From: an uncultured virus (IMG/VR IMGVR_UViG_3300046513_000171)
Lineage: Duplodnaviria > Heunggongvirae > Uroviricota > Caudoviricetes
Strand: one strand, 5' to 3'
DNA: 22,544 bases
Virus record (IMG/VR): IMGVR_UViG_3300046513_000171
The translations under genes and the position numbers were made by a program. This document shows positions 656 to 20,762 of this stretch, in pieces (within the stretch, counting starts at the first letter, position 1; each line of letters begins with the position of its first letter). The notes below the pieces were generated by a model that saw nothing but the letters and a program-made list of their open reading frames with translations, was not told where the DNA came from and ran no database searches.

Positions 656-916
656 TTACTGCTGGTTCAGGTAATCCAGAATGCAGTGCTTCGCCGCGCG
701 CATGTCAGGCTCGGGCGTGTTGTAGCTCATGCTGAAGCATTCGAGATCCGTCGCTGCGAAGTGCGGCGCAGCCTTGATATTGATCGTGCGTGCGCCACGC
801 TGCCACTCGAAATACACGCCGTCGTTGGAGGTCGTGAAGTACAGGTACTCATGACCGTTGCGCTTGACGGTGCGCTCCAGGTTGATGTGGGCGTACCTCA
901 CCTTGGGTTTTTTCAC
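656..916 (-). CDS. Hypothetical phage protein, 86 aa
   Basis: GTG start after palindrome plus GAAGGAG; tiles between two palindrome copies. Confidence 0.85.
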   Translation of the reverse strand: MKKPKVRYAHINLERTVKRNGHEYLYFTTSNDGVYFEWQRGARTINIKAAPHFAATDLECFSMSYNTPEPDMRAAKHCILDYLNQQ

Positions 917-2281: not shown

Positions 2282-2731
2282 TTACGCTTTCTCGCGCGCT
2301 GCAGCGAGTGCGGCCTTGGTTGCCTCGGACTTCTCCTTGCACTCGGCAGTCAGTTGGGTGTACACGCCGCCGTCGATCGCATACACATCACACAGGAAAG
2401 CCATCTGATGCACGATCAGGCGGATTGCTGCGTCATTGCGCACGTCCATCGTGTCGCCGTTCTCGCCGCGCTGGATCTGGTTGATACAGTGCACCAGCGA
2501 GCGCGCCACGCCGCTCAGATTGCCCGCCCCGGCCTGGATACCAATCGCATCGTTCCAGCGGTTGGAGGCGAGCACGTTCATGTCCTGCACGCCCGCCGTG
2601 AACGACTTCAGTCCCGGCCCTTCGAATGTCTGCACGGCAGGGCTCAGGATCTGGCGCACCATCTCGTGCGCTGCGGCATGTGATTCGGCTTCGAAAGTCA
2701 GTGCGATGTTCAGTGTGATCTGCTTGCTCAT
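2282..2731 (-). CDS. Hypothetical phage protein, 149 aa
   Basis: ATG after palindrome plus GAAGGAG; fits the tiling of the cluster. Confidence 0.85.
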   Translation of the reverse strand: MSKQITLNIALTFEAESHAAAHEMVRQILSPAVQTFEGPGLKSFTAGVQDMNVLASNRWNDAIGIQAGAGNLSGVARSLVHCINQIQRGENGDTMDVRNDAAIRLIVHQMAFLCDVYAIDGGVYTQLTAECKEKSEATKAALAAAREKA

Positions 2732-2759
2732 GATGGTGCTCTCCTTCGGAAATTTCCGA

Positions 2760-2957
2760 TTAATGAATGACCCGCTGGCAGTCGTGCAGCTTCAGAATGA
2801 AGCTCACATCCTCCCAGTCGAAGTCCTCGTTGATGTGATAATGCGAGCCCTCATGCAACTCGCATTGGTAAATCACCCCCGCTGACACCAGCGCCTGCGC
2901 CTCGTCATCATCCAGTACGCAAGGCACGGCGTCAGCTTCCAGAATCACTGCTGACAT
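2760..2957 (-). CDS. Small acidic hypothetical protein, 65 aa
   Basis: ATG 2 nt after the upstream stop; TAA abuts the palindrome at 2746-2759. Confidence 0.75.
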   Translation of the reverse strand: MSAVILEADAVPCVLDDDEAQALVSAGVIYQCELHEGSHYHINEDFDWEDVSFILKLHDCQRVIH

Positions 2958-2959
2958 CG

Positions 2960-3265
2960 TTACTTCGCAGCGAGCTGGCTGTCGTTGTTATCGATGTGCA
3001 CCCATGCCGGCCATTCCGCCTTCGCCGATGCCATGCTCGGCTGCTTCGGCATGTTGTCCTTGTAGTACTTCTCGCGCTCGACCGGGTTCATCGTCTGCGA
3101 GTTCGGAAAGTTTCCGAGCTGCGCCTGACCATAGCCATTCGCGCCGCCGTAGCTCGAACTCGATGCGGCCGCACCCGTGCCGTTGCCACCCGCCGATGCA
3201 CCACTGCCCGCAAATGCGGGCGCTGTGGCAATGAGAAGAAGCGCGGTAATCAGATACTTTTTCAT
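2960..3265 (-). CDS. Secreted/periplasmic small protein, 101 aa
   Basis: Sec-type signal peptide MKKYLITALLLIATAPAFA followed by a Gly/Ala/Ser-rich segment; AAGGGG upstream. Confidence 0.8.
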   Translation of the reverse strand: MKKYLITALLLIATAPAFAGSGASAGGNGTGAAASSSSYGGANGYGQAQLGNFPNSQTMNPVEREKYYKDNMPKQPSMASAKAEWPAWVHIDNNDSQLAAK

Positions 3266-3304
3266 TTTGAACCCCTTGGATTGCGTTATTGACTACAGGA
3301 TTAA

Positions 3305-3460
3305 CTACAGGAAAGGCTGCGGATGGACCAGCACGGTGAGCACCGCCGCAGCGACAGCGACCACCGTTACAAGCAGAGCCACGCACGTGCGCGCCGGCCA
3401 CCGCATCAGCGAGAGCAACACGAGCAACAGGACGAGCGGATTAGTCACGAACCGGGTCAT
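3305..3460 (-). CDS. Small hydrophobic membrane protein, 51 aa (MTRFVTNPLVLLVLLSLMRWPARTCVALLVTVVAVAAAVLTVLVHPQPFL)
   Basis: Translated by hand; fills the gap in the minus-strand cluster; two hydrophobic stretches. Confidence 0.6.
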   Translation of the reverse strand: MTRFVTNPLVLLLVLLSLMRWPARTCVALLVTVVAVAAAVLTVLVHPQPFL

Positions 3461-8542: not shown

Positions 8543-8571
8543 TTGACATTCACTCCCCATAAATCTACAGT
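8543..8571 (+). promoter_or_regulatory. Sigma70-type promoter TTGACA-17-TACAGT
   Basis: Perfect -35, 17-bp spacer, 4/6 -10, AT-rich upstream; expected +1 coincides with ATG 8578. Confidence 0.75.
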
Positions 8572-8577
8572 CTCGCC

Positions 8578-9024
8578 ATGAAATTCTCCGACGACAACCT
8601 GTTCGATGAAGAGCCCGAGCTGCACCGCGTCGATTCGCGTGCGCAAGGGGTGATCGACATGATCAAGGAGCTGTCCGCCGAGGACCAGCTGCTGGTCATG
8701 ATGGCCACGCGCGCCATGAACCCGGTGCGCGCCGAGGACATCGACCTCGAACAGGAGATCGCCGAGCAGCTGCGCGCGGCCCAGTTCCTGATGACGGAAG
8801 TGCTCACCAGCAAGGCCAACACGACCAGCAAGACGAGCGCCCTGTCGGCCGTCTCGCGCGCGATCAAGCAGCTCACCGACCTGCAGGCGAAGACGTACAA
8901 CATCAACCGGCTGCGCGCACTGGAGAAGGCTCTCGTGACGACGCTGCACGGCCACCCGGATGGCGACGCGCTGCTCGCGCAGTGGCGCTCGACGTTCCAG
9001 CGCATGGTCCAGGCGGGCGTATGA
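8578..9024 (+). CDS. Helical phage protein, 148 aa; possible terminase small subunit
   Basis: Strong GC3-biased ORF; size, helical character and position next to the cos-like site suggest TerS, but no diagnostic motif. Confidence 0.45.
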   Translation: MKFSDDNLFDEEPELHRVDSRAQGVIDMIKELSAEDQLLVMMATRAMNPVRAEDIDLEQEIAEQLRAAQFLMTEVLTSKANTTSKTSALSAVSRAIKQLTDLQAKTYNINRLRALEKALVTTLHGHPDGDALLAQWRSTFQRMVQAGV

Positions 9025-9227
9025 CGCGAACGATTCACAACTGGCGTGTCGACTTTGCCAATGACTACCACTTCGTCGTGGTTGGCGATCAGCGCGACCT
9101 CTCACGCTACCTGCGCGTCGCTCACGACTTCGGCCATACGAGGATCATCCGCGCGTGGCGCGATGACGCTCCCGTGGACCTGCTACTCGACTTCCACAGC
9201 TGCGGCGTAACGGTGACCGAGAGATGA
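9021..9227 (+). CDS. Hypothetical protein, 68 aa (MTRTIHNWRVDF...)
   Basis: ATGA overlaps with both neighbours. Confidence 0.7.
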   Translation: MTRTIHNWRVDFANDYHFVVVGDQRDLSRYLRVAHDFGHTRIIRAWRDDAPVDLLLDFHSCGVTVTER

Positions 9228-10367: not shown

Positions 10368-10444
10368 AGTCAGCATTGACACGGTTAACCTCCTATACTT
10401 CGTGGCGTAGTCCCCTACAACCCCACACGAACACCGGAGTAACC

Positions 10445-11113
10445 ATGCTGATAGCCGTCGCCACCCGCAAGGGCGGGGTGGGCAAGACCACTATTGCCAC
10501 CAATCTGGCCGTGCGCCGGGCGCAGGACTCGCCCGACGTCCACCTCGTCGATGCCGACCGCGATGAGTACGCGCACATGTTCGGACTGACGCGCCGCGAG
10601 AACAACATCACGCCGACCATCAGCCTGTCCAAAATGACGGGCAACATTTACCCCGACCTGATCGCCGCGCGCGCCGCGCACGAGACCGTGATCGTCGACG
10701 TCGGCGGCAAGCAGGCGCCCGAGATCGTCTACGCGGTGGGCGCCTGCGACGTGCTGGTGCTCCCGGTACGCGCCGGTCAGTACGACGCGTGGTCGCTGCA
10801 GGCTGCCGCGCGCATGGTCAGCGAGATGCGCGCGAACGGCAAGACCTTCCGCATCGTCCCCGTGATGAACGCGATCCCGCCGGAGAAGAACAGCTCGCTC
10901 ACGCGCATGATCGAGGCCGAGCTGAAGACGCTCACGGAGATCTTCGGCGAGCCCAGGGTGCGCATCGTCGAGCGCGTGGCGTTCGTGACCGCCTCGATCG
11001 GCGGCAAGGGCGTGTGCGAGCTGAAGCGCGGGCGCGACACGGCGTCGGCTATCGACGAGATGGAAGCGCTGTACCGGGAGGTGTTCGGTACCGTCGCGCC
11101 CGCGCGCGCGTGA
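10445..11113 (+). CDS. parA: ParA/ParF-type partition ATPase (type Ib, no N-terminal HTH), 222 aa
   Basis: Deviant Walker A KGGVGKTT at the N-terminus, LVDAD, VIVDVGG; start moved to ATG 10445 after GGAG. Confidence 0.93.
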   Translation: MLIAVATRKGGVGKTTIATNLAVRRAQDSPDVHLVDADRDEYAHMFGLTRRENNITPTISLSKMTGNIYPDLIAARAAHETVIVDVGGKQAPEIVYAVGACDVLVLPVRAGQYDAWSLQAAARMVSEMRANGKTFRIVPVMNAIPPEKNSSLTRMIEAELKTLTEIFGEPRVRIVERVAFVTASIGGKGVCELKRGRDTASAIDEMEALYREVFGTVAPARA

Positions 11114-11412: not shown

Positions 11413-11862
11413 AACGCAACTAGCTGTCTGCCACCCCAAACGGGGACGAACAGACCGCTAGTTGCCTTTTCTGCAAAACCGCTTTTCAGGGGTAGGTGGT
11501 CCACCCGCGCCCGCCTGGGGACAGCCGGGTTGCCCACACTGGCGTGTGGACAATCGGCGAGCCGATTCCCCGCCTGACCACAGGCTCCCCACGAGCTTCG
11601 CCCTTCGGGCCTGACGCGCGCTTCGCGCTTGCCCCAGTGAGAGAGAAAGTCAAAATTCGAACCCCCGAAACCGTCGGTTAACCAACAATAAGAAAGGAGG
11701 TTCGTCCAGACCGCTGTAAGTCACTGTAAACGTTGGAAAATTCCGTCCCCGAAAGGGGTCACAGATGTCCCGAATAGGGGACACTGGAGTCACCATTGCG
11801 TAGAGGTGGATCAATGGTCTATAGTCCTGTCAAGGGACATCGACGTCCTTCTATGTGACAGG
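11413..11862. promoter_or_regulatory. Probable plasmid oriV / rep control region
   Basis: About 450 bp non-coding before rep; three imperfect palindromes GGG(A/T)C-N6-GTC(C/A)(C/T) at 11756, 11778, 11834. Confidence 0.65.
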
Positions 11863-12393
11863 ATGCAGCAGGTGAGGAACGCGAATTTGCCCGAATTGGG
11901 GACGCCCGAGACACACAAGCCTGACTTGGGTGGCTGGCTTCAAGTGGAGAAAAAGACCTTGCGCGCTATTACGCAACTCACCGTCAAGCACCCAGTCGCA
12001 GCCGGGATGCTGCACTTGCTGGCAAGCAAGATGAGCCGCACAAACGCGGTCGTTCTGAGCCATAAGGCCATTGCCGAAGAGCTGGGTGTCGTCGAGCGCA
12101 GCGTCAAGCGGGCGCTCGTGATCTTACGCGAAGGCAATTGGGTCGAGGTGCTCAAGGTCGGGACGACCAACGCGTACCGGATCAACTCGCGCGTCTACTG
12201 GCAAGGCGAACGCGGCAAACGGTTCGCCAGCTTCTACGCGGCGGTGTCGGTGCGTGAGGATGAGCAAGACCCGGGCGTCGTGGACAACCACGAACCGCTG
12301 CATCAGATCCCCGTTGCCGCGCCCGACGAGCGCGTTCTGGTGGGCAACGAACCGCTCGACCCTCCAGACCAGCAGGAGCTGTTTCTAGCATGA
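11863..12393 (+). CDS. rep: Plasmid replication initiator of the pBBR1 Rep / RepL-like HTH type; start uncertain (11806-11872)
   Basis: GWLQVEKK..HPVAAGMLHLLASKMSRTNAVVLSHKAIAEELG..RSVKRAL..L..GNW..AYRINSRVYW..FYAAVSV aligns by eye with recalled pBBR1 Rep (HWVQTERK..PTAAMLLHHLVAQMGHQNAVVVSQKTL..AYVVNDRVAW..FSAAVVV). Confidence 0.85.
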   Translation: MQQVRNANLPELGTPETHKPDLGGWLQVEKKTLRAITQLTVKHPVAAGMLHLLASKMSRTNAVVLSHKAIAEELGVVERSVKRALVILREGNWVEVLKVGTTNAYRINSRVYWQGERGKRFASFYAAVSVREDEQDPGVVDNHEPLHQIPVAAPDERVLVGNEPLDPPDQQELFLA

Positions 12394-12563: not shown

Positions 12564-12585
12564 GGCCGCCGCGAAGGTGGCCTTT
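12564..12585 (+). terminator. Possible weak intrinsic terminator after the rep module
   Basis: GGCCGCC-GCGAA-GGTGGCC then TTT. Confidence 0.45.
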
Positions 12586-12590
12586 CATTG

Positions 12591-15470: not shown

Positions 15471-15556
15471 ACCCCCTCATGATCGGCTGGTACCTGTACG
15501 CGATCTTTTTCACGCCGCGCCCGGTTCGCGACGTCCGTAAAACTGAGGACTCCTGA
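15467..15556 (+). CDS. Small peptide, 29 aa (MNPLMIGWYLYAIFFTPRPVRDVRKTEDS), translationally coupled to terL
   Basis: GGAG SD; ATGA overlap upstream, TGATG overlap with terL. Confidence 0.5.
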   Translation: MNPLMIGWYLYAIFFTPRPVRDVRKTEDS

Positions 15557-17286
15557 TGCCCAGCGGTCGCAAAGCCAACACCGAATGGGTGATGGATGAG
15601 TCGAGCCTGTTCGACCGCCTGCAGACGGCGGTCGGCACGAGCTTCTCGCACGACGCGGTCCCCAAGTGGATCGAAGAGAACACCTACATCAGCGGCAAGA
15701 ACTACAGCTTCGTCGACCACGAGTACCAGCTGAAGATCCTCGCCTCGCGCAAGCCCGAGCAGTACACGAAGAAGTGCTCGCAACTCGGGATCAGCGAGCT
15801 GAAGGTGCGGCGCGTGCTCTCGCTGTGCTACATGATCCCGCACTTCTCCGCGATCCTGACGCTGCCCACCTCGAACTTCGCCTCGATGTTCGCGAAGACC
15901 CGGATCGACCCGGTGATCCGCGAAAGTGAGCCTTTACGGGAGGCCGTCGTCGGCAACAACGACAGCACGGAGCTGAAGCAGATCGGCTCGTCACTGCTCT
16001 ATATCCGCGGCACGTTCACGCAGAACGCGGCGATCTCGGTACCGGCCGACATGCTGCTGCATGACGAGGTCGACTTCTCCGATCAGGACGCCCTCACCAG
16101 CTTCCAGTCGCGCCTGACGCACTCGAAGCTCAAATGGAAAATGAAGACGAGCACGCCGACCGTGCCGCGCTACGGGATCGACGATGAATTTGCGAACAGC
16201 AATCGCTGGTTTAATTTTGTCCGCTGCTGCCACTGCAACCACCAGTTCATCCCGAGCTACCAGGACCACGTGGTTGTCCCCGGCTTTCATGGCGACGTCT
16301 TCTCGCTGGACAAGACGAAGCTGCCACGCACGCGCTGGCGCGAGGCATACCTCGCCTGCCCGAAGTGCAAGAAGCGTCCTGACCTGAGACTCGACTTTCG
16401 CGAGTGGGTCTGCGAGAACCCGGACGAGCAGCACAACGCCGACGGCACGCAGCTCTCCCCTTTCGACGCGCCAGGCTTCATCAGCGTGCAGGATCTGCTG
16501 CTCTCGCGTACGGGCTACAAGCGGCTGACCGACTTCAAGAACTTCGGCCTCGGGCAGACCGACGAGGACGAGCTGAGCGGCATCCAGCAGGCCGACATCG
16601 ACCTCATGGAGATGGTCTACCTGCCGGGGCTCGTCGGCAGCGTGCTGGGCATCGACATGGGCACGACCTGCCACGTGTCGGAGTGCTACATCGACGCGGG
16701 CAACCACCTGATGCAGCGTCGCGTGCACCGTATCAACTACAAGGAGCTGGACGCCGAGCTGGACAAGATCGTCAAGCGCTGCAAGCCGATCGCGATGGTA
16801 ATGGACAGCCAGCCGTACACCGAGACGGTGTACCGCATGCAGCAGAAGTACAAGAACCTCTACGCGTCGGTCTATGTGAAGGCCAAGGGCATGCGGCCGT
16901 ACCGGATGCTCGACGAGGAAGAGGACCGGAGGGACGCCCTCTTCGACGAGCGGCAGATCAACGTCAACCGGAACATCGCGCTCGACTTCCTGATGGAAGA
17001 CATCCGCGCCGGCCTGATCGGCAACGACCCGATGCAACCTGACGAGGACCGGCAGGAGTTCCGCGACCACATGCGCGACATGCGCCGCGTGCGGCTGGCG
17101 GGCAACGCGAACGCGCCAGACACAGACGCGTACCAGTGGGTCAAGTCGAAGGTCGAGATCGACCACATGCACCACGCATTGCTTTATGCGTGGGTTGCCG
17201 CCAAGCTGCGCCTCGCCGCGCGCCCGGTGATCGCCGTGTCGAGCCTGGAGCTGATGAGCAAGCTGCGACTGAAGGCGCCGCTTTAA
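15556..17286 (+). CDS. terL: Terminase large subunit, GpA (lambda-like) type, 576 aa
   Basis: KKCSQLGISE (Walker A variant), LLHDEVD (Walker B), STPT motif, CxxC pairs, C-terminal nuclease GIDMG and DHMHHA. Confidence 0.92.
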   Translation: MPSGRKANTEWVMDESSLFDRLQTAVGTSFSHDAVPKWIEENTYISGKNYSFVDHEYQLKILASRKPEQYTKKCSQLGISELKVRRVLSLCYMIPHFSAILTLPTSNFASMFAKTRIDPVIRESEPLREAVVGNNDSTELKQIGSSLLYIRGTFTQNAAISVPADMLLHDEVDFSDQDALTSFQSRLTHSKLKWKMKTSTPTVPRYGIDDEFANSNRWFNFVRCCHCNHQFIPSYQDHVVVPGFHGDVFSLDKTKLPRTRWREAYLACPKCKKRPDLRLDFREWVCENPDEQHNADGTQLSPFDAPGFISVQDLLLSRTGYKRLTDFKNFGLGQTDEDELSGIQQADIDLMEMVYLPGLVGSVLGIDMGTTCHVSECYIDAGNHLMQRRVHRINYKELDAELDKIVKRCKPIAMVMDSQPYTETVYRMQQKYKNLYASVYVKAKGMRPYRMLDEEEDRRDALFDERQINVNRNIALDFLMEDIRAGLIGNDPMQPDEDRQEFRDHMRDMRRVRLAGNANAPDTDAYQWVKSKVEIDHMHHALLYAWVAAKLRLAARPVIAVSSLELMSKLRLKAPL

Positions 17287-17393
17287 ACGGCGCGTTCTGT
17301 CCCTTACAGCGTGTATCCGTCGGTAACAAGTGTGGCCGATCCTCGCGCGCTGGCAAAGAATGCGGATTCCGTCCCGCCCAACTGGAGCGAGCC

Positions 17394-17615
17394 ATGTCCG
17401 CCATCGAACGTCTCGACGCGGCCCTCAAGGACTTCCGCCACTCTCTGGAGCTGCTCGACGAGCCTGGCCACTTTGCCGGGGTCGTCCACCAGCGCCCTGC
17501 CACTGCCCGCCGGCTGCACCTGGTGCGCGTGATGCTGCGCGCCGAGCGCGGCGTACCGAACACTGAACCCGACTACAACCCGGCGTACTTCGTCGACGAG
17601 TTGGTTCGCCACTAG
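17394..17615 (+). CDS. Hypothetical protein, 73 aa (MSAIERLDAALKDF...)
   Basis: GGAG SD; ATG 17394 inside track ORF 17136-17615. Confidence 0.65.
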   Translation: MSAIERLDAALKDFRHSLELLDEPGHFAGVVHQRPATARRLHLVRVMLRAERGVPNTEPDYNPAYFVDELVRH

Positions 17616-17648
17616 CAACCCCCAATCACTTTGGTCGAGTGATTTTTC

Positions 17649-17679
17649 AAGCCCGTGAATAACCTTCACGGGCTTTTTT
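17649..17679 (+). terminator. Intrinsic terminator
   Basis: AAGCCCGTGAA / TTCACGGGCTT stem followed by a T tract. Confidence 0.88.
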
Positions 17680-17695
17680 CATTTTGCTCTGGTGT

Positions 17696-17724
17696 TTGAC
17701 AGACTTCATCAGGACGTCTAATCT
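17696..17724 (+). promoter_or_regulatory. Sigma70 promoter TTGACA-17-TAATCT
   Basis: Perfect -35, 17-bp spacer, -10 with the conserved TA---T; just after a terminator. Confidence 0.75.
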
Positions 17725-17730
17725 CCGGGT

Positions 17731-17939
17731 CAACTGGCTCAACCGGTCGCCAGATCCAGAACACCGGACAAGCAACAAGCAATAAAGCGCAGCCCCCGGC
17801 AGCACCCCGAAGTCAAGGTCGTTGCGGCACAGCGACCTGTATCGCAGGTTCCCACCCACCTGCGGTATGCAGCACCTCTGTGGTTAGTCCGTGTTTGGCC
17901 TCGGCGCCGCGCATCGAAAGGTGCGCGGCGCTCTTCATT
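17731..17939 (+). ncRNA. Candidate ~200-nt structured non-coding RNA
   Basis: Own promoter; enclosing helix 17756-17769/17887-17898; adjacent hairpins 17816-17838 and 17839-17868; terminal 13-bp GAAA-tetraloop hairpin 17903-17932; no convincing ORF. Confidence 0.6.
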
Positions 17940-17951
17940 GGTGGTCATTTC

Positions 17952-17980
17952 TTGCGTAGTCCTCAACATTCCAGTAAATT
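17952..17980 (+). promoter_or_regulatory. Possible sigma70 promoter TTGCGT-17-TAAATT for the head operon
   Basis: Correct spacing, 28 nt upstream of portal ATG 18009. Confidence 0.55.
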
Positions 17981-18008
17981 TCGGCTCAATACTCAAAGGG
18001 TGGTTCCA

Positions 18009-19745
18009 ATGGCGGGAGTGCGCGAGACGGCGAAACGGGTGATGGGCTGGTTCGGCAACGGCCGCGCCCAGGCACAGCAGCGTCTGGCGAGTGCCGGGGC
18101 CCAGGAGCCGAAGCTCACCACCGCGAAGGTCGGTGCGCGCACGGTCGTGATCGGTGCGCGCGACGGCCAGGTCGGCTATGAGGTGCTCGGCCCCGTGAAG
18201 GGCACGGGCGGCCAGGCCGCGGACCTGCCGCAGGTCGCTGATCCGAAGATCAAGGGCAAGAGCGGGGTCACCACCCCGTCGATGTTCACCATCGCCAAGC
18301 CCTCGCCGCAGGCGCAGATGGTCGACACCGACCGCGGCACGACGAACCTTGATCTCACCACCTTCCGCACCACCGGCACCACCAAGCAGACGGTCCAGAT
18401 CTTCTCGAAGGTCAACCCCGAGCTGGCGGCGGCCGTCGACGCGTACATCCGCCTCGCGCTCACCGACGCGACCACGGTCGCCTATGACCGCACCTCGGGC
18501 AGCGTGGACCCGCAAGGCTCGGCAGTCATCCAGCAGTGGATTCGCCAGAACGACCTGATTGGTCAGTATGACCAGGGATACAACCCGAACTACACGCTGC
18601 GCGCGTTGTGCGAGATGTGGGCGCTGGAGTTGCGCCAGTTCGGCTCGGCAGCCGGCGAAGTGGTGCTGGACCAGGCGCGCGTGCCCACGCGTATCCAGCC
18701 GGTCGGCTCGCGCGACATCAAGTGGTTCCCGGCGCCGAACGCGCGCTGGGCAATCCCGAACCAGCAGGTCGGCGGCCAGTACATCCCGCTCGACTTCCCT
18801 GCCTTCTTCTACGCGTCGGTCGACCAGTCGCTCTACACGGCGTACTCGGAGTCGCCGATGGAGCCGTCACTGCAGCCGGTGCTCTTCGGCCTGCAGCTGC
18901 TCAACGACATCCGTCGCGTGATCCGCATGAATCTGCATCCGCGCACGACCGTCACGCTGAAAACGGAAGAGCTGCAGGGACTGGTGCCGCCCGAGGCGCA
19001 GCAAGACCCCGACAAGCTGCTGGACTTCTACAACAAGTTCATCGCGCAGGTCGCCGCCAACATCGACGGGCTGGAGCCGGAAGAAGCGCTCATCATGCTC
19101 GACTCGATGGAGGTCAAGATCCTCGACCGGGGCAACTCGACGCTCTCGAACGAGTACGACATCCTCACGAAGATGGCCGACCAGAAGATCAGCTCGGGCG
19201 CCAAGGTGCTGCCAGGCGTGATCGGGCGCGGCACCAACGCGTCGTCCGCGTCGGTCGAGTCGATGATCTTCATCAAGCAGGTCGAAGGCAGCGTGCAGAA
19301 GCCGCTCAACGAGCTGCTCTCGCGCATGTTCACGCTGATCCTGCGCATGCTCGGCTCCGACTCGGTGGTCGAATTCAGGCTCGCTGACATCGACCTGCGC
19401 CCGAAGGTCGAACTCGAAGCGTTCAAGGCGCAGCGCCAGGCGCGCGTCATGGAGCTGCTGTCGCTGGGCTTCATCAGCGACGAGGAAGCCTCCGTCCAGC
19501 TCAACGGCCAGCTGCAGAGCGGTACCTTCACGCCGCTCTCGGGCACGCGCTTCTATGAGCCGACGACCGTCGGCGTCACCGCGACCAACCCTTACTCAGG
19601 TAGCCCGTCAGGCGGCTCGCCCGGCCAGGACGGCGGCGGCGGCAGCCAGAACGAACAGCTCGGCAACACCCCCACCAAGGGCAAGACAGGTAGCAATCCT
19701 AAACAGGCGCAAAAACCGGCGCCTAAACAGACTCAGAAGGCATAA
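18009..19745 (+). CDS. Portal protein (probable), 578 aa
   Basis: Size and position between terL and head protease; low-complexity C-terminal tail; start moved to ATG 18009 (AAGGGTGG upstream). Confidence 0.8.
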   Translation: MAGVRETAKRVMGWFGNGRAQAQQRLASAGAQEPKLTTAKVGARTVVIGARDGQVGYEVLGPVKGTGGQAADLPQVADPKIKGKSGVTTPSMFTIAKPSPQAQMVDTDRGTTNLDLTTFRTTGTTKQTVQIFSKVNPELAAAVDAYIRLALTDATTVAYDRTSGSVDPQGSAVIQQWIRQNDLIGQYDQGYNPNYTLRALCEMWALELRQFGSAAGEVVLDQARVPTRIQPVGSRDIKWFPAPNARWAIPNQQVGGQYIPLDFPAFFYASVDQSLYTAYSESPMEPSLQPVLFGLQLLNDIRRVIRMNLHPRTTVTLKTEELQGLVPPEAQQDPDKLLDFYNKFIAQVAANIDGLEPEEALIMLDSMEVKILDRGNSTLSNEYDILTKMADQKISSGAKVLPGVIGRGTNASSASVESMIFIKQVEGSVQKPLNELLSRMFTLILRMLGSDSVVEFRLADIDLRPKVELEAFKAQRQARVMELLSLGFISDEEASVQLNGQLQSGTFTPLSGTRFYEPTTVGVTATNPYSGSPSGGSPGQDGGGGSQNEQLGNTPTKGKTGSNPKQAQKPAPKQTQKA

Positions 19746-19748
19746 ACG

Positions 19749-20762
19749 ATGAACCTCCTTTCGCTGCTGGGCGGCCAGATGTTGTGGGTGGGCGGCGAAG
19801 ACTCGCTCGCCCAGGTCGTGCTGTCGCTGATCACTGACGATTACGACCGCATGCGCGCCGAAGCCGAGCGCGAGCGCACCGAGTTCTTCAAGCAGCGTGA
19901 CTACCTGCGCACGCGCCGCAGCACAGCCAATGCCGGCGTGGTCGCCGCGCTCACCGCCGCGGGCATCACGGCGCAGGTCGACTCGGGCGACGCCAGCGAG
20001 AGCGAGGAAGAGCGCAAGGCATTCAGTTCCGCCCCGCTCTCCGTGCTCGATAACGGCGTGGGCGTGATCTCGATCAACGGCGGCCTCGTCAACAGCGACA
20101 AGTGGTACCTGAAGTACATGGGCATGGTCGGCTACCCGCACATCCAGGATTCGCTCGTCGAGGCGTACAGCAACCCCGACGTGAAGAGCGTCGTGCTCGC
20201 GATCAAGTCGCCGGGCGGCGCAGTGTCAGGCGTCTCCGAGACAGCTGCGGCAATCCGCGCGCTGGGCACGGTCAAGCCGGTGTCGACCTTCGCCGACGGC
20301 CTGATGGCCTCGGGCGGTTACTGGTTGGGCTCGCAGACGGGCGACGTGATGGCCGCCCCGATGAGCCAGATCGGCTCGATCGGCGTGGTGATGACGCACA
20401 TCGAGTACAGCAAGATGATGGAGAAGGCAGGCATCACGGCTACCGTCATGCGCAAGGGCGAATACAAGATGCTGATGACGCCGCATGAGCCGCTCTCGGA
20501 CAAGGCGAAAGCCCAGGCCGAGAACGACATGAACGTGATCTATGACTCGTTCACGCAGGACGTCGCGAACGGCATGGGCGTCTCGCAGGATACGGTCAAG
20601 AGCCAGTGGGGCGAAGGCCGGGTGTTCTGGACCAACGAGGCGATTGGCCTCGGTATGGCAAATTCTTCAGGATCTCTAACAGATGCTGTTGCAAAATCGG
20701 CGCAAAACGCAGAGAATCGCGCCAAACAGGCGAACGGTGCCGGTGTTCGTCATCACTTTTAA
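19749..20762 (+). CDS. S49-family (SppA/ClpP-like) head maturation protease, 337 aa
   Basis: IKSPGGAVSG, MASGGYWLGS, IGSIGV, GEYK, F..DVA, GRVF motifs. Confidence 0.93.
   Translation: MNLLSLLGGQMLWVGGEDSLAQVVLSLITDDYDRMRAEAERERTEFFKQRDYLRTRRSTANAGVVAALTAAGITAQVDSGDASESEEERKAFSSAPLSVLDNGVGVISINGGLVNSDKWYLKYMGMVGYPHIQDSLVEAYSNPDVKSVVLAIKSPGGAVSGVSETAAAIRALGTVKPVSTFADGLMASGGYWLGSQTGDVMAAPMSQIGSIGVVMTHIEYSKMMEKAGITATVMRKGEYKMLMTPHEPLSDKAKAQAENDMNVIYDSFTQDVANGMGVSQDTVKSQWGEGRVFWTNEAIGLGMANSSGSLTDAVAKSAQNAENRAKQANGAGVRHHF

Follow-up and report, generated by a model that had tools for sequence, protein, structure and literature searches.

In lambda, no more than about 200 nt separate the late promoter PR' from an intrinsic terminator, tR', at the head of the late genes, and in Shiga-toxin phages the terminated transcript of a lambda-type PR' became the small RNA (sRNA) StxS, a short RNA able to act in trans (PMC7547250). 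The put RNA of phage HK022 works in cis on the polymerase that transcribes it, by way of the beta' zinc-binding domain, and suppresses terminators downstream. Put, EAR of B. subtilis and canT of Tn916 are processive antiterminators made of RNA only, put having two adjacent stem-loops between a sigma-70 promoter and a terminator followed by a long operon (PMC9378689 and PMC11658703). Lambdoid phages also carry morons, promoter-gene-terminator units inserted between late genes, and the HK022 record annotates a 'moron gene product'. Among bacteria, trans-acting sRNAs with C-rich loops, such as the staphylococcal RNAIII and Rsa RNAs, pair with G-rich ribosome-binding sites. To our knowledge, only a small number of phage non-coding RNAs come from outside the model phages. 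We found none described at a terminase-portal junction in the literature searched, and a 2025 review (PMC12197685) contains neither the word 'portal' nor the word 'terminase'. Here we analyze such a junction in a stretch of 22,544 nt from an uncultured virus of the Caudoviricetes (IMG/VR record IMGVR_UViG_3300046513_000171; this whole stretch is called the window below), for which an earlier note, made from the letters alone, had proposed a structured RNA with its own promoter between the terminase and portal genes.

The junction holds a conserved, strand-specific structured RNA element, arranged between a promoter-type site and a terminator-type hairpin and belonging to no known family. Our preferred reading, with a probability of roughly 0.48, is that the element specifies a small, autonomous RNA some 210 nt long whose terminal hairpin (H3) also shields the portal operon. 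The features concerned are the following (columns refer to alignment A3).

17649..17685, + strand: intrinsic terminator of the upstream (terminase) operon, 11-bp stem (17649-17675) and TTTTCATTTT tail
17696..17724, + strand: P1, putative sigma-70-type promoter (TTGACA, 17-bp spacer, TAATCT)
17731..17942, + strand: predicted non-coding RNA of about 210 nt, from fold statistics, with putative ends
17731..17749, + strand: 5'-terminal hairpin, 7-bp stem and 5-nt loop (columns 52-70)
17756..17767, + strand: 5' arm of a possible long-range (enclosing) helix, partner 17889-17898
17768..17782, + strand: A-rich single-stranded linker with a 7-nt tandem duplication (ACAAGCA twice)
17787..17802, + strand: invariant CCCCC motif (columns 108-123)
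17809..17815, + strand: GAAGUCA just before H1, unpaired and invariant in 5/5 sequences
17816..17838, + strand: hairpin H1, 8 pairs, 100% of cells paired, one two-sided change
17839..17868, + strand: hairpin H2, abutting H1, 11 pairs, 100% paired, three compensatory pairs; C-rich loop TCCCACCC at 17850-17857
17889..17898, + strand: 3' arm of the possible enclosing helix (from A3)
17903..17942, + strand: hairpin H3 with T-rich tail; 13-bp G+C-rich stem (17903-17932), GAAA loop, tail CTTCATTGG
17952..17980, + strand: P2, promoter-like site (TTGCGT, 17-bp spacer, TAAATT), with TTGCGTAGTCCT invariant in the spacer
17983..18008, + strand: short portal leader with a G-rich ribosome-binding site, GGGTGG at 17998-18003

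A conserved structured RNA in one phage clade

In portal- and pattern-based scans of viral contigs, the block was confined to one small clade of uncultured phages of roughly 85 kb, in which portal identity to the window spans 88% to 75%. Five distinct versions of the block represent four lineages (the window, L002, L005, L006 and L007). L001 and L003 are identical copies of the window block and G001 is identical to the window over the region; L007, L008, L009, L147 and G002 are likewise the same. The last of these is a genome of 85,240 bp (100% complete according to CheckV) in which the block is present once. Searches of the viral contigs with the portal protein and with a portal alignment gave nine and eight loci, every one from this clade, and a TerL alignment gave eight, seven of them from the clade and one, at 30% identity, without the element. 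The 14-mer pattern GAAGTCAAGGTCGT occurred in at least 119 stretches, and nhmmer over 129 loci (the earlier clade loci included) returned nine matches, all from the clade. Two longer patterns retrieved eight and nine stretches, with a single new locus, L139, that shares just an H3-like hairpin. This hairpin, at 866-897 (minus strand) of an unrelated 59.6-kb viral contig, has 25 nt identical to the H3 core and follows immediately on a stop codon. It has no T tail, and the remainder of the element is missing there.

Searching elsewhere added no relative. The block had no blastn match in GenBank phages or PLSDB plasmids; tblastn of the portal protein against plasmids gave nine records, all below 30% identity and none a new lineage. 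A pattern scan of metagenomes gave three stretches, none homologous, and genome contigs gave 83 pattern matches without a relative, plus one DNA match in a Bifidobacterium metagenome-assembled genome that is not homologous either. Among cultured phages the closest are Achromobacter JWF, Pseudomonas Lana, Caulobacter Seuss and others, with portal proteins of just 26-30% identity.

The conserved block spans 17696-18008, its left edge falling exactly at the invariant TTGACA of P1 and its right edge at the portal ATG (alignments A1 and A3). The DNA directly upstream of TTGACA cannot be aligned between lineages, and what lies there differs: a terminator in the window, a 120-aa open reading frame (ORF) in L005, L006 and L007, and a different terminator in L002. 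Identity between lineages is 74-83% in the block, compared with 77-86% over the whole portal gene and 66-74% at portal third codon positions; between L006 and L007 the element is 96% identical. Indels in the block measure 1, 2, 3, 4 and 7-8 nt.

The predicted RNA of the window (17731-17942) is unusually stable (z = -3.46, 0/200 shuffles as stable), as are its counterparts in G002 and L005 (z = -3.60 and -3.59, 0/200 each), whereas the reverse complements are unremarkable (z = -0.57, 55/200, and z = +0.17, 108/200). The wider 315-nt span 17696-18010 is unexceptional (z = -1.60, 7/100 shuffles), and this holds for either strand. Several G-U pairs in the stems, invariant or alternating with other pairs, would be A-C mismatches on the opposite strand; since these pairs and the fold asymmetry point the same way, a + strand RNA is indicated. 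The earlier note had taken several G-T pairs in the stems as favouring structure at the RNA level, and A3 shows these pairs to be real and conserved.

Hairpins H1, H2 and H3 are paired in 100% of cells across the five distinct sequences. The whole tested structure contains five two-sided pair changes (one in H1, three in H2, one in H3), a number reached by 2/500 column shuffles, and its covariation score is reached by 0/500; sliding the partners by one to three columns lowers pairing to 29-44%. The 5'-terminal hairpin is paired in 97.1% of cells with 6/7 pairs invariant and, being almost invariant, gives no covariation evidence. The linker appears free to vary in length, because the ACAAGCA duplication accounts for the 7-8-nt indel relative to the other sequences. 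In the four other sequences a 4-bp hairpin presents the CCCCC motif as its loop; the window forms only two of the four pairs.

All the motifs named in the earlier note (the terminator, P1, the helix arms, H1, the H2 loop, H3, P2 and GGGTGG) are present where it had placed them, and conservation, fold and covariation bear out its picture of a structured RNA flanked by a putative promoter with -35 and -10 boxes and by a terminator-type hairpin, P2 being a further promoter-like site before the portal gene. It had looked to homologous junctions for covariation, and these did supply compensated pairs across five sequences, none of which falls in the enclosing helix. As drawn there, with arms CCAGAACACCGGAC (17756-17769, + strand) and GTCCGTGTTTGG (17887-17898, + strand), this helix is paired in 81.7% of cells with no compensated pair in A3. 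A re-registered 9-bp version, in which G17759 rather than A17758 pairs with 17896, reaches 97.8%, with three pairs showing one-sided G-C/G-U changes and none compensated, and its score does not rise above shuffles (190/500 reach it). The helix appears in the minimum-energy fold of the window and in neither that of G002 nor that of L005. It is thus compatible with the alignment without covariation, and we regard it as possible, not established.

One could see in the block an ordinary intergenic spacer, a promoter and a terminator whose hairpins are kept by close kinship and have no RNA function beyond termination. The known lineages number only four, L006 and L007 are nearly the same in the element, 33/43 pairs in the five local hairpins never vary, and the 315-nt span folds no better than expected, all of which would suit that explanation. 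We nevertheless find it improbable: the flank upstream has diverged past alignment while the element is conserved like coding DNA and above third codon positions, compensatory changes lie in three separate hairpins with zero broken cells, stability is strand-specific, and stretches that do not pair are invariant.

The block is non-coding. G+C at third codon positions (GC3) is flat across it (0.43-0.63), against 0.83-1.00 in the portal gene, and the open frames differ among the five homologues and are broken by indels. Since indels are not multiples of three and frames are lineage-specific, a conserved protein is excluded, in line with the earlier note, which had seen no credible ORF. The window does have stop-free frames of 104 aa (+ strand) and 90 aa (minus strand), and a 70-aa minus-strand ORF at 17647-17859, from which a small protein on either strand might be imagined; we give this idea almost no credence, since those frames are not kept between lineages and lack a GC3 signal, and the minus-strand ORF would extend into the unconserved flank. 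A small ORF in the block was rejected as a candidate, the frames not being shared between homologues.

Translation of the portal from 17880 can be discarded: L002, L006 and L007 have in-frame stops in that extension, their ORFs beginning 9 nt before the ATG, and the GC3 signal starts at about 18009, where the conserved ATG lies. A search of Rfam release 15, the check that the earlier note had in view, returned no family at its gathering score. Within the element the best hits were 14.6 bits where 80 was required (search over 17000-18600) and 17.3 bits where 40 was required (search over 17725-17950). The block contains no tRNA or tmRNA either.

Putative promoters, terminator and possible modes of action

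The -35 box of P1 agrees with consensus in 6/6 positions and is invariant in 5/5 sequences. Its -10 box varies (TAATCT, TAACCT or TAAGGT), with 3/6 consensus positions, the key positions A2 and T6 being kept. The window has two occurrences of TTGACA-N16-18-TANNNT where 0.10 would be expected (0/100 shuffles with two or more), and the complete 85-kb G002 has three. The second site of this type in the window (8543) and the one at 82317 in G002 lie directly before gene starts; host-type promoters are therefore plausibly in use by the phage. A side observation concerns the spacing at such sites. The promoters with a perfect -35 at window 8543-8580 and at G002 82317 (+ strand) and 64314 (minus strand) consist of TTGACA, a 17-bp spacer and TACAGT or TAATCT, and the -10 ends 6-10 nt before the next start codon (ATG at 8578 in the window), a distance short enough to suggest leaderless or near-leaderless early mRNAs in this phage.

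P2 agrees with consensus at 8/12 positions, which is under the scan threshold, and is the sole such site in G002. Its spacer shows unusual conservation. Two invariant motifs some 250 bp from each other, TCAGGAC in the spacer of P1 (17709-17715) and an inverted counterpart, (A)GTCCT(C/A/G)A, in that of P2 (17957-17963), could be a pair of protein-binding sites. RNAalifold pairs the two motifs with each other, the first of them lying upstream of the predicted transcript start. Further downstream, the portal ribosome-binding site can pair with AUUUCG just upstream, overlapping the -10 of P2 (columns 305-310 with 326-331), with 93.3% of cells paired and one compensated pair in A3.

H3 has the anatomy that defines an intrinsic (Rho-independent) terminator, a G+C-rich stem-loop followed by a U-rich tract, and is predicted to act as one. 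It is the highest-ranked terminator-like site in G002, L005 and L002, where the tails pass a rule of at least five T in eight. Two likenesses within the window may be recorded alongside. The tail motif TTCATT is common to its three + strand terminator-like hairpins (12564-12590, 17649-17685 and 17903-17942), and the hairpin at 12564 has a CGAAGGTG apex reminiscent of H3.

These parts suggest the following scheme. P1, as a host-type promoter, would start a folded RNA of about 210 nt (about 17731-17942), and most transcripts would end at H3 and be released as a small RNA. H3 and the terminator at 17649 would keep transcription from upstream and from P1 out of the portal and structural genes, whose own transcription would presumably start at P2. 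The released RNA would most likely act by base-pairing or protein binding through its invariant single-stranded segments (the C-rich loops, GAAGUCA and CCAGAUCCAGAA). Its only candidate targets seen so far are G-rich ribosome-binding sites such as that of the portal itself. The element thus looks like a new phage small-RNA gene, to be placed with phage-encoded small RNAs or RNA morons.

The earlier note had suggested that the C-rich loop pairs with the ribosome-binding site of the portal. By inspection, complementarity between the H2 loop and that site is indeed present in all four lineages (CCACCC/GGGUGG, CCCCGCC/GGUGGGG, CCCCGUC/GGCGGGG and CCCCG/CGGGG), and the block RNA resembles the C-rich-loop sRNAs in this, in its C-rich apical loops and in its 3' terminator hairpin. 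The complementarity is short (5-7 nt) and not specific, unlike in that class: the portal start region ranks only 13/55 in a crude duplex scan of start regions.

Besides this rank, several observations weigh against an autonomous small RNA. Exact complements of 10-12 nt are no more frequent in the phage genomes than chance predicts, none is common to the window and G002, and no further conserved phage target emerged. A stricter promoter scan (4-of-6 rule) flags neither P1, with its 3/6 in the -10, nor P2. The H3 tail of the window has only 4-5 T and goes unflagged by the terminator scan there. The covariation counts are indicative, coming from five related sequences in four lineages, and kin sequences can beat a column-shuffle control without structure. 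Finally, the element always stands directly before the portal gene and its conservation continues through P2 to the portal start, as would be equally expected of a cis-acting leader.

The last point leads to the main alternative, a different arrangement of the same parts as a cis-acting gate of the structural operon in which P1 would be the real portal promoter and H3 a terminator to be overcome. A phage protein could do so from the promoter or from H1/H2, as Q does at PR'-tR' and N at nut in lambda. Alternatively, H1-H2 could do so itself as nascent RNA, like HK022 put, EAR and canT. In such a gate the short terminated RNA would be a side product, perhaps keeping a role in trans as StxS does. 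In 5/5 sequences the element is strictly linked to the portal start while its upstream neighbour varies, conservation in the P2 spacer exceeds what a plain promoter requires, and the structural block of G002 has more + strand terminator-like sites, at 18862 and 19676. The succession of promoter, RNA of about 170 nt, terminator and long operon is also the anatomy of lambda PR'-tR', as described in PMC7547250. From that system the block differs in standing before the portal rather than lysis genes, in its covarying hairpins, in having P2 after the terminator and in that no Q-like gene was found.

As for RNA-mediated antitermination, the two abutting stem-loops (about 55 nt) recall the two-stem put RNA of about 70 nt (PMC9378689 and PMC11658703), although their stems are nearly perfect and those of the put type are bulged. 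Membership in the put family was rejected: covariance model R1, built from H1-H2 (66 positions, 19 pairs), matches nothing, in sequence or structure, anywhere in the HK022 genome (40,751 bp) at E values up to 10. Control of the lambda Q type was set aside as well, since no antiterminator, sigma factor or RNA polymerase family was recognised among 95/97 crude ORFs of G002 (PHROGs, E <= 1e-5); an unrecognised antitermination factor is possible because 54 of those 95 have no family at all. Inspection also revealed no conserved alternative pairing with the arms of H3, and the one point that tells against the mechanism itself is the conserved -35/-10-like P2 between H3 and the portal. Taken together, a gate seems to us possible, if rather doubtful. 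It is compatible with a small RNA, and the two are not exclusive.

The earlier note had also considered a packaging-associated RNA or a decoy against host defence. The site between the terminase and portal genes would suit an RNA akin to the pRNA of phi29, or such a decoy. These proposals gained no support, and we hold them to be very improbable. A phi29-type packaging RNA was rejected: the region has no match to the pRNA family of Rfam, the loops are not mutually complementary and could not kiss each other, because by inspection no loop is G-rich enough to pair with the C-rich ones, and the terminase is of the lambda GpA type. We know of no terminase of that type that uses an RNA. A type III toxin-antitoxin RNA (ToxI-like) was likewise rejected, as the block has only the two-copy 7-nt duplication and no direct-repeat family, and the downstream gene is the portal.

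A decoy could take the form of an RNA that partly imitates the 3' end of 16S ribosomal RNA (rRNA) and draws away a factor recognising that end, for instance an enzyme of rRNA maturation or a defence nuclease that targets ribosomes. At its apex (17910-17925), H3 resembles the helix-45 apex, a stem with a GNRA loop, of 16S rRNA (the type of Caballeronia, Ralstonia, Stenotrophomonas and Priestia, hence of Burkholderiales, Xanthomonadales and Bacillales) in 14/16 bases in the window and L002 and in 15/16 in L006 and L007. Its score against the last 80 nt of 16S is reached by 0-2/300 shuffles in the window, L002, L006 and L007 and by 12-18/300 in L005, values to be read with caution, since the 16S target region was chosen after the fact, two GNRA hairpins may match by chance, and shuffles that destroy the hairpin overstate significance. 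Upstream of H3, the invariant GAAGUC and AAGGU follow in the same order as in the compared 16S 3' ends, which we take to be the order of the decoding-site strand. A stretch of 21 nt (17858-17878), made up of the 3' arm of H2 and the bases after it, can be aligned with the 3' tail of E. coli 16S including CACCTC, with 1/300 shuffles reaching the score in the window; in the relatives this likeness is at chance (57-185/300), so it belongs to the window alone. Rfam searches gave no rRNA match, and the family RF00177 has none in G002. The chance that the RNA is such a mimic seems to us slighter still than that of a packaging RNA or decoy in general.

Origin and genomic setting

The junction is insertion-like. 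In JWF the terminase and portal genes share an overlap of 32 nt, in Seuss one abuts the other, and in Lana a gap of 186 nt lies between them; because they overlap or abut in the first two, the 73-aa gene, the terminator and the RNA unit together represent a clade-specific insertion that splits what forms a single operon elsewhere. The RNA unit, flanked by P1 and H3, fits the definition of a moron, since it has its own putative promoter and terminator and is inserted between genes adjacent in relatives. Like the lambdoid units, it would carry a promoter and a factor-independent terminator, and the phage that harbours it has maintenance genes of plasmid type. It differs in its cargo, a non-coding RNA where morons carry a protein gene, and its expression from a prophage is putative.

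The plasmid-type genes lie upstream of the terminase on the same strand. The window has a ParA-type ATPase (10376-11110) and a replication-initiator gene (11806-12390), and G002 has counterparts at 1068-1688 and 2567-3334, namely ParA and a Rep3-type initiator. The initiator of the window is merely a weak RepL-like match, whereas that of G002 is Rep3. No integrase was present among the families found. From the ParA and Rep3 genes we infer that these phages are probably maintained as plasmids in a carrier state, so the clade would consist of phage-plasmids, and such a state is when a constitutive small unit would matter. The element, a unit of about 310 nt that is compact and clearly bounded, heads the structural operon of what is likely a phage-plasmid clade, and could show how such elements silence or switch on virion genes.

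The genes around the element, in a window of 62% G+C, are these.

15556-17286: large terminase (phrog_675, profile positions 8-549 of 576; Pfam GpA_ATPase)
17394..17615, + strand: conserved 73-aa gene following the large terminase, at the end of the upstream operon
18009..19745, + strand: portal gene (phrog_3753, E = 1.4e-55)
19749-20762: S49 head protease, directly after the portal

The 73-aa gene has homologues in L006 and L007, and third-position G+C favours its frame from about 17350; its product matched no Pfam or PHROG family. A longer ORF of 159 aa in the same place (17136-17615) runs over the terminase end and is spurious, a product of the longest-ORF rule, as only its last 73 codons (from the ATG at 17394) are conserved and have coding composition. 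The terminator at 17649 that follows ranks top in the terminator-like scan of the window, and a terminator-like site is also found after the region of the 73-aa gene in L002, L005 and G002.

Between the 73-aa gene and the RNA unit, some relatives carry an extra ORF of 120-122 aa without a known family (L005 2209-2577; L006 and L007 2206-2568; G002 8674-9036). Since it is present in three lineages and missing from the window and L002, the junction appears to be an insertion hot spot. On the other side of the element, the variable N-terminal part of the portal gene contains an imperfect 21-nt tandem repeat at 18127-18175 (2.3 copies, 75% matches).

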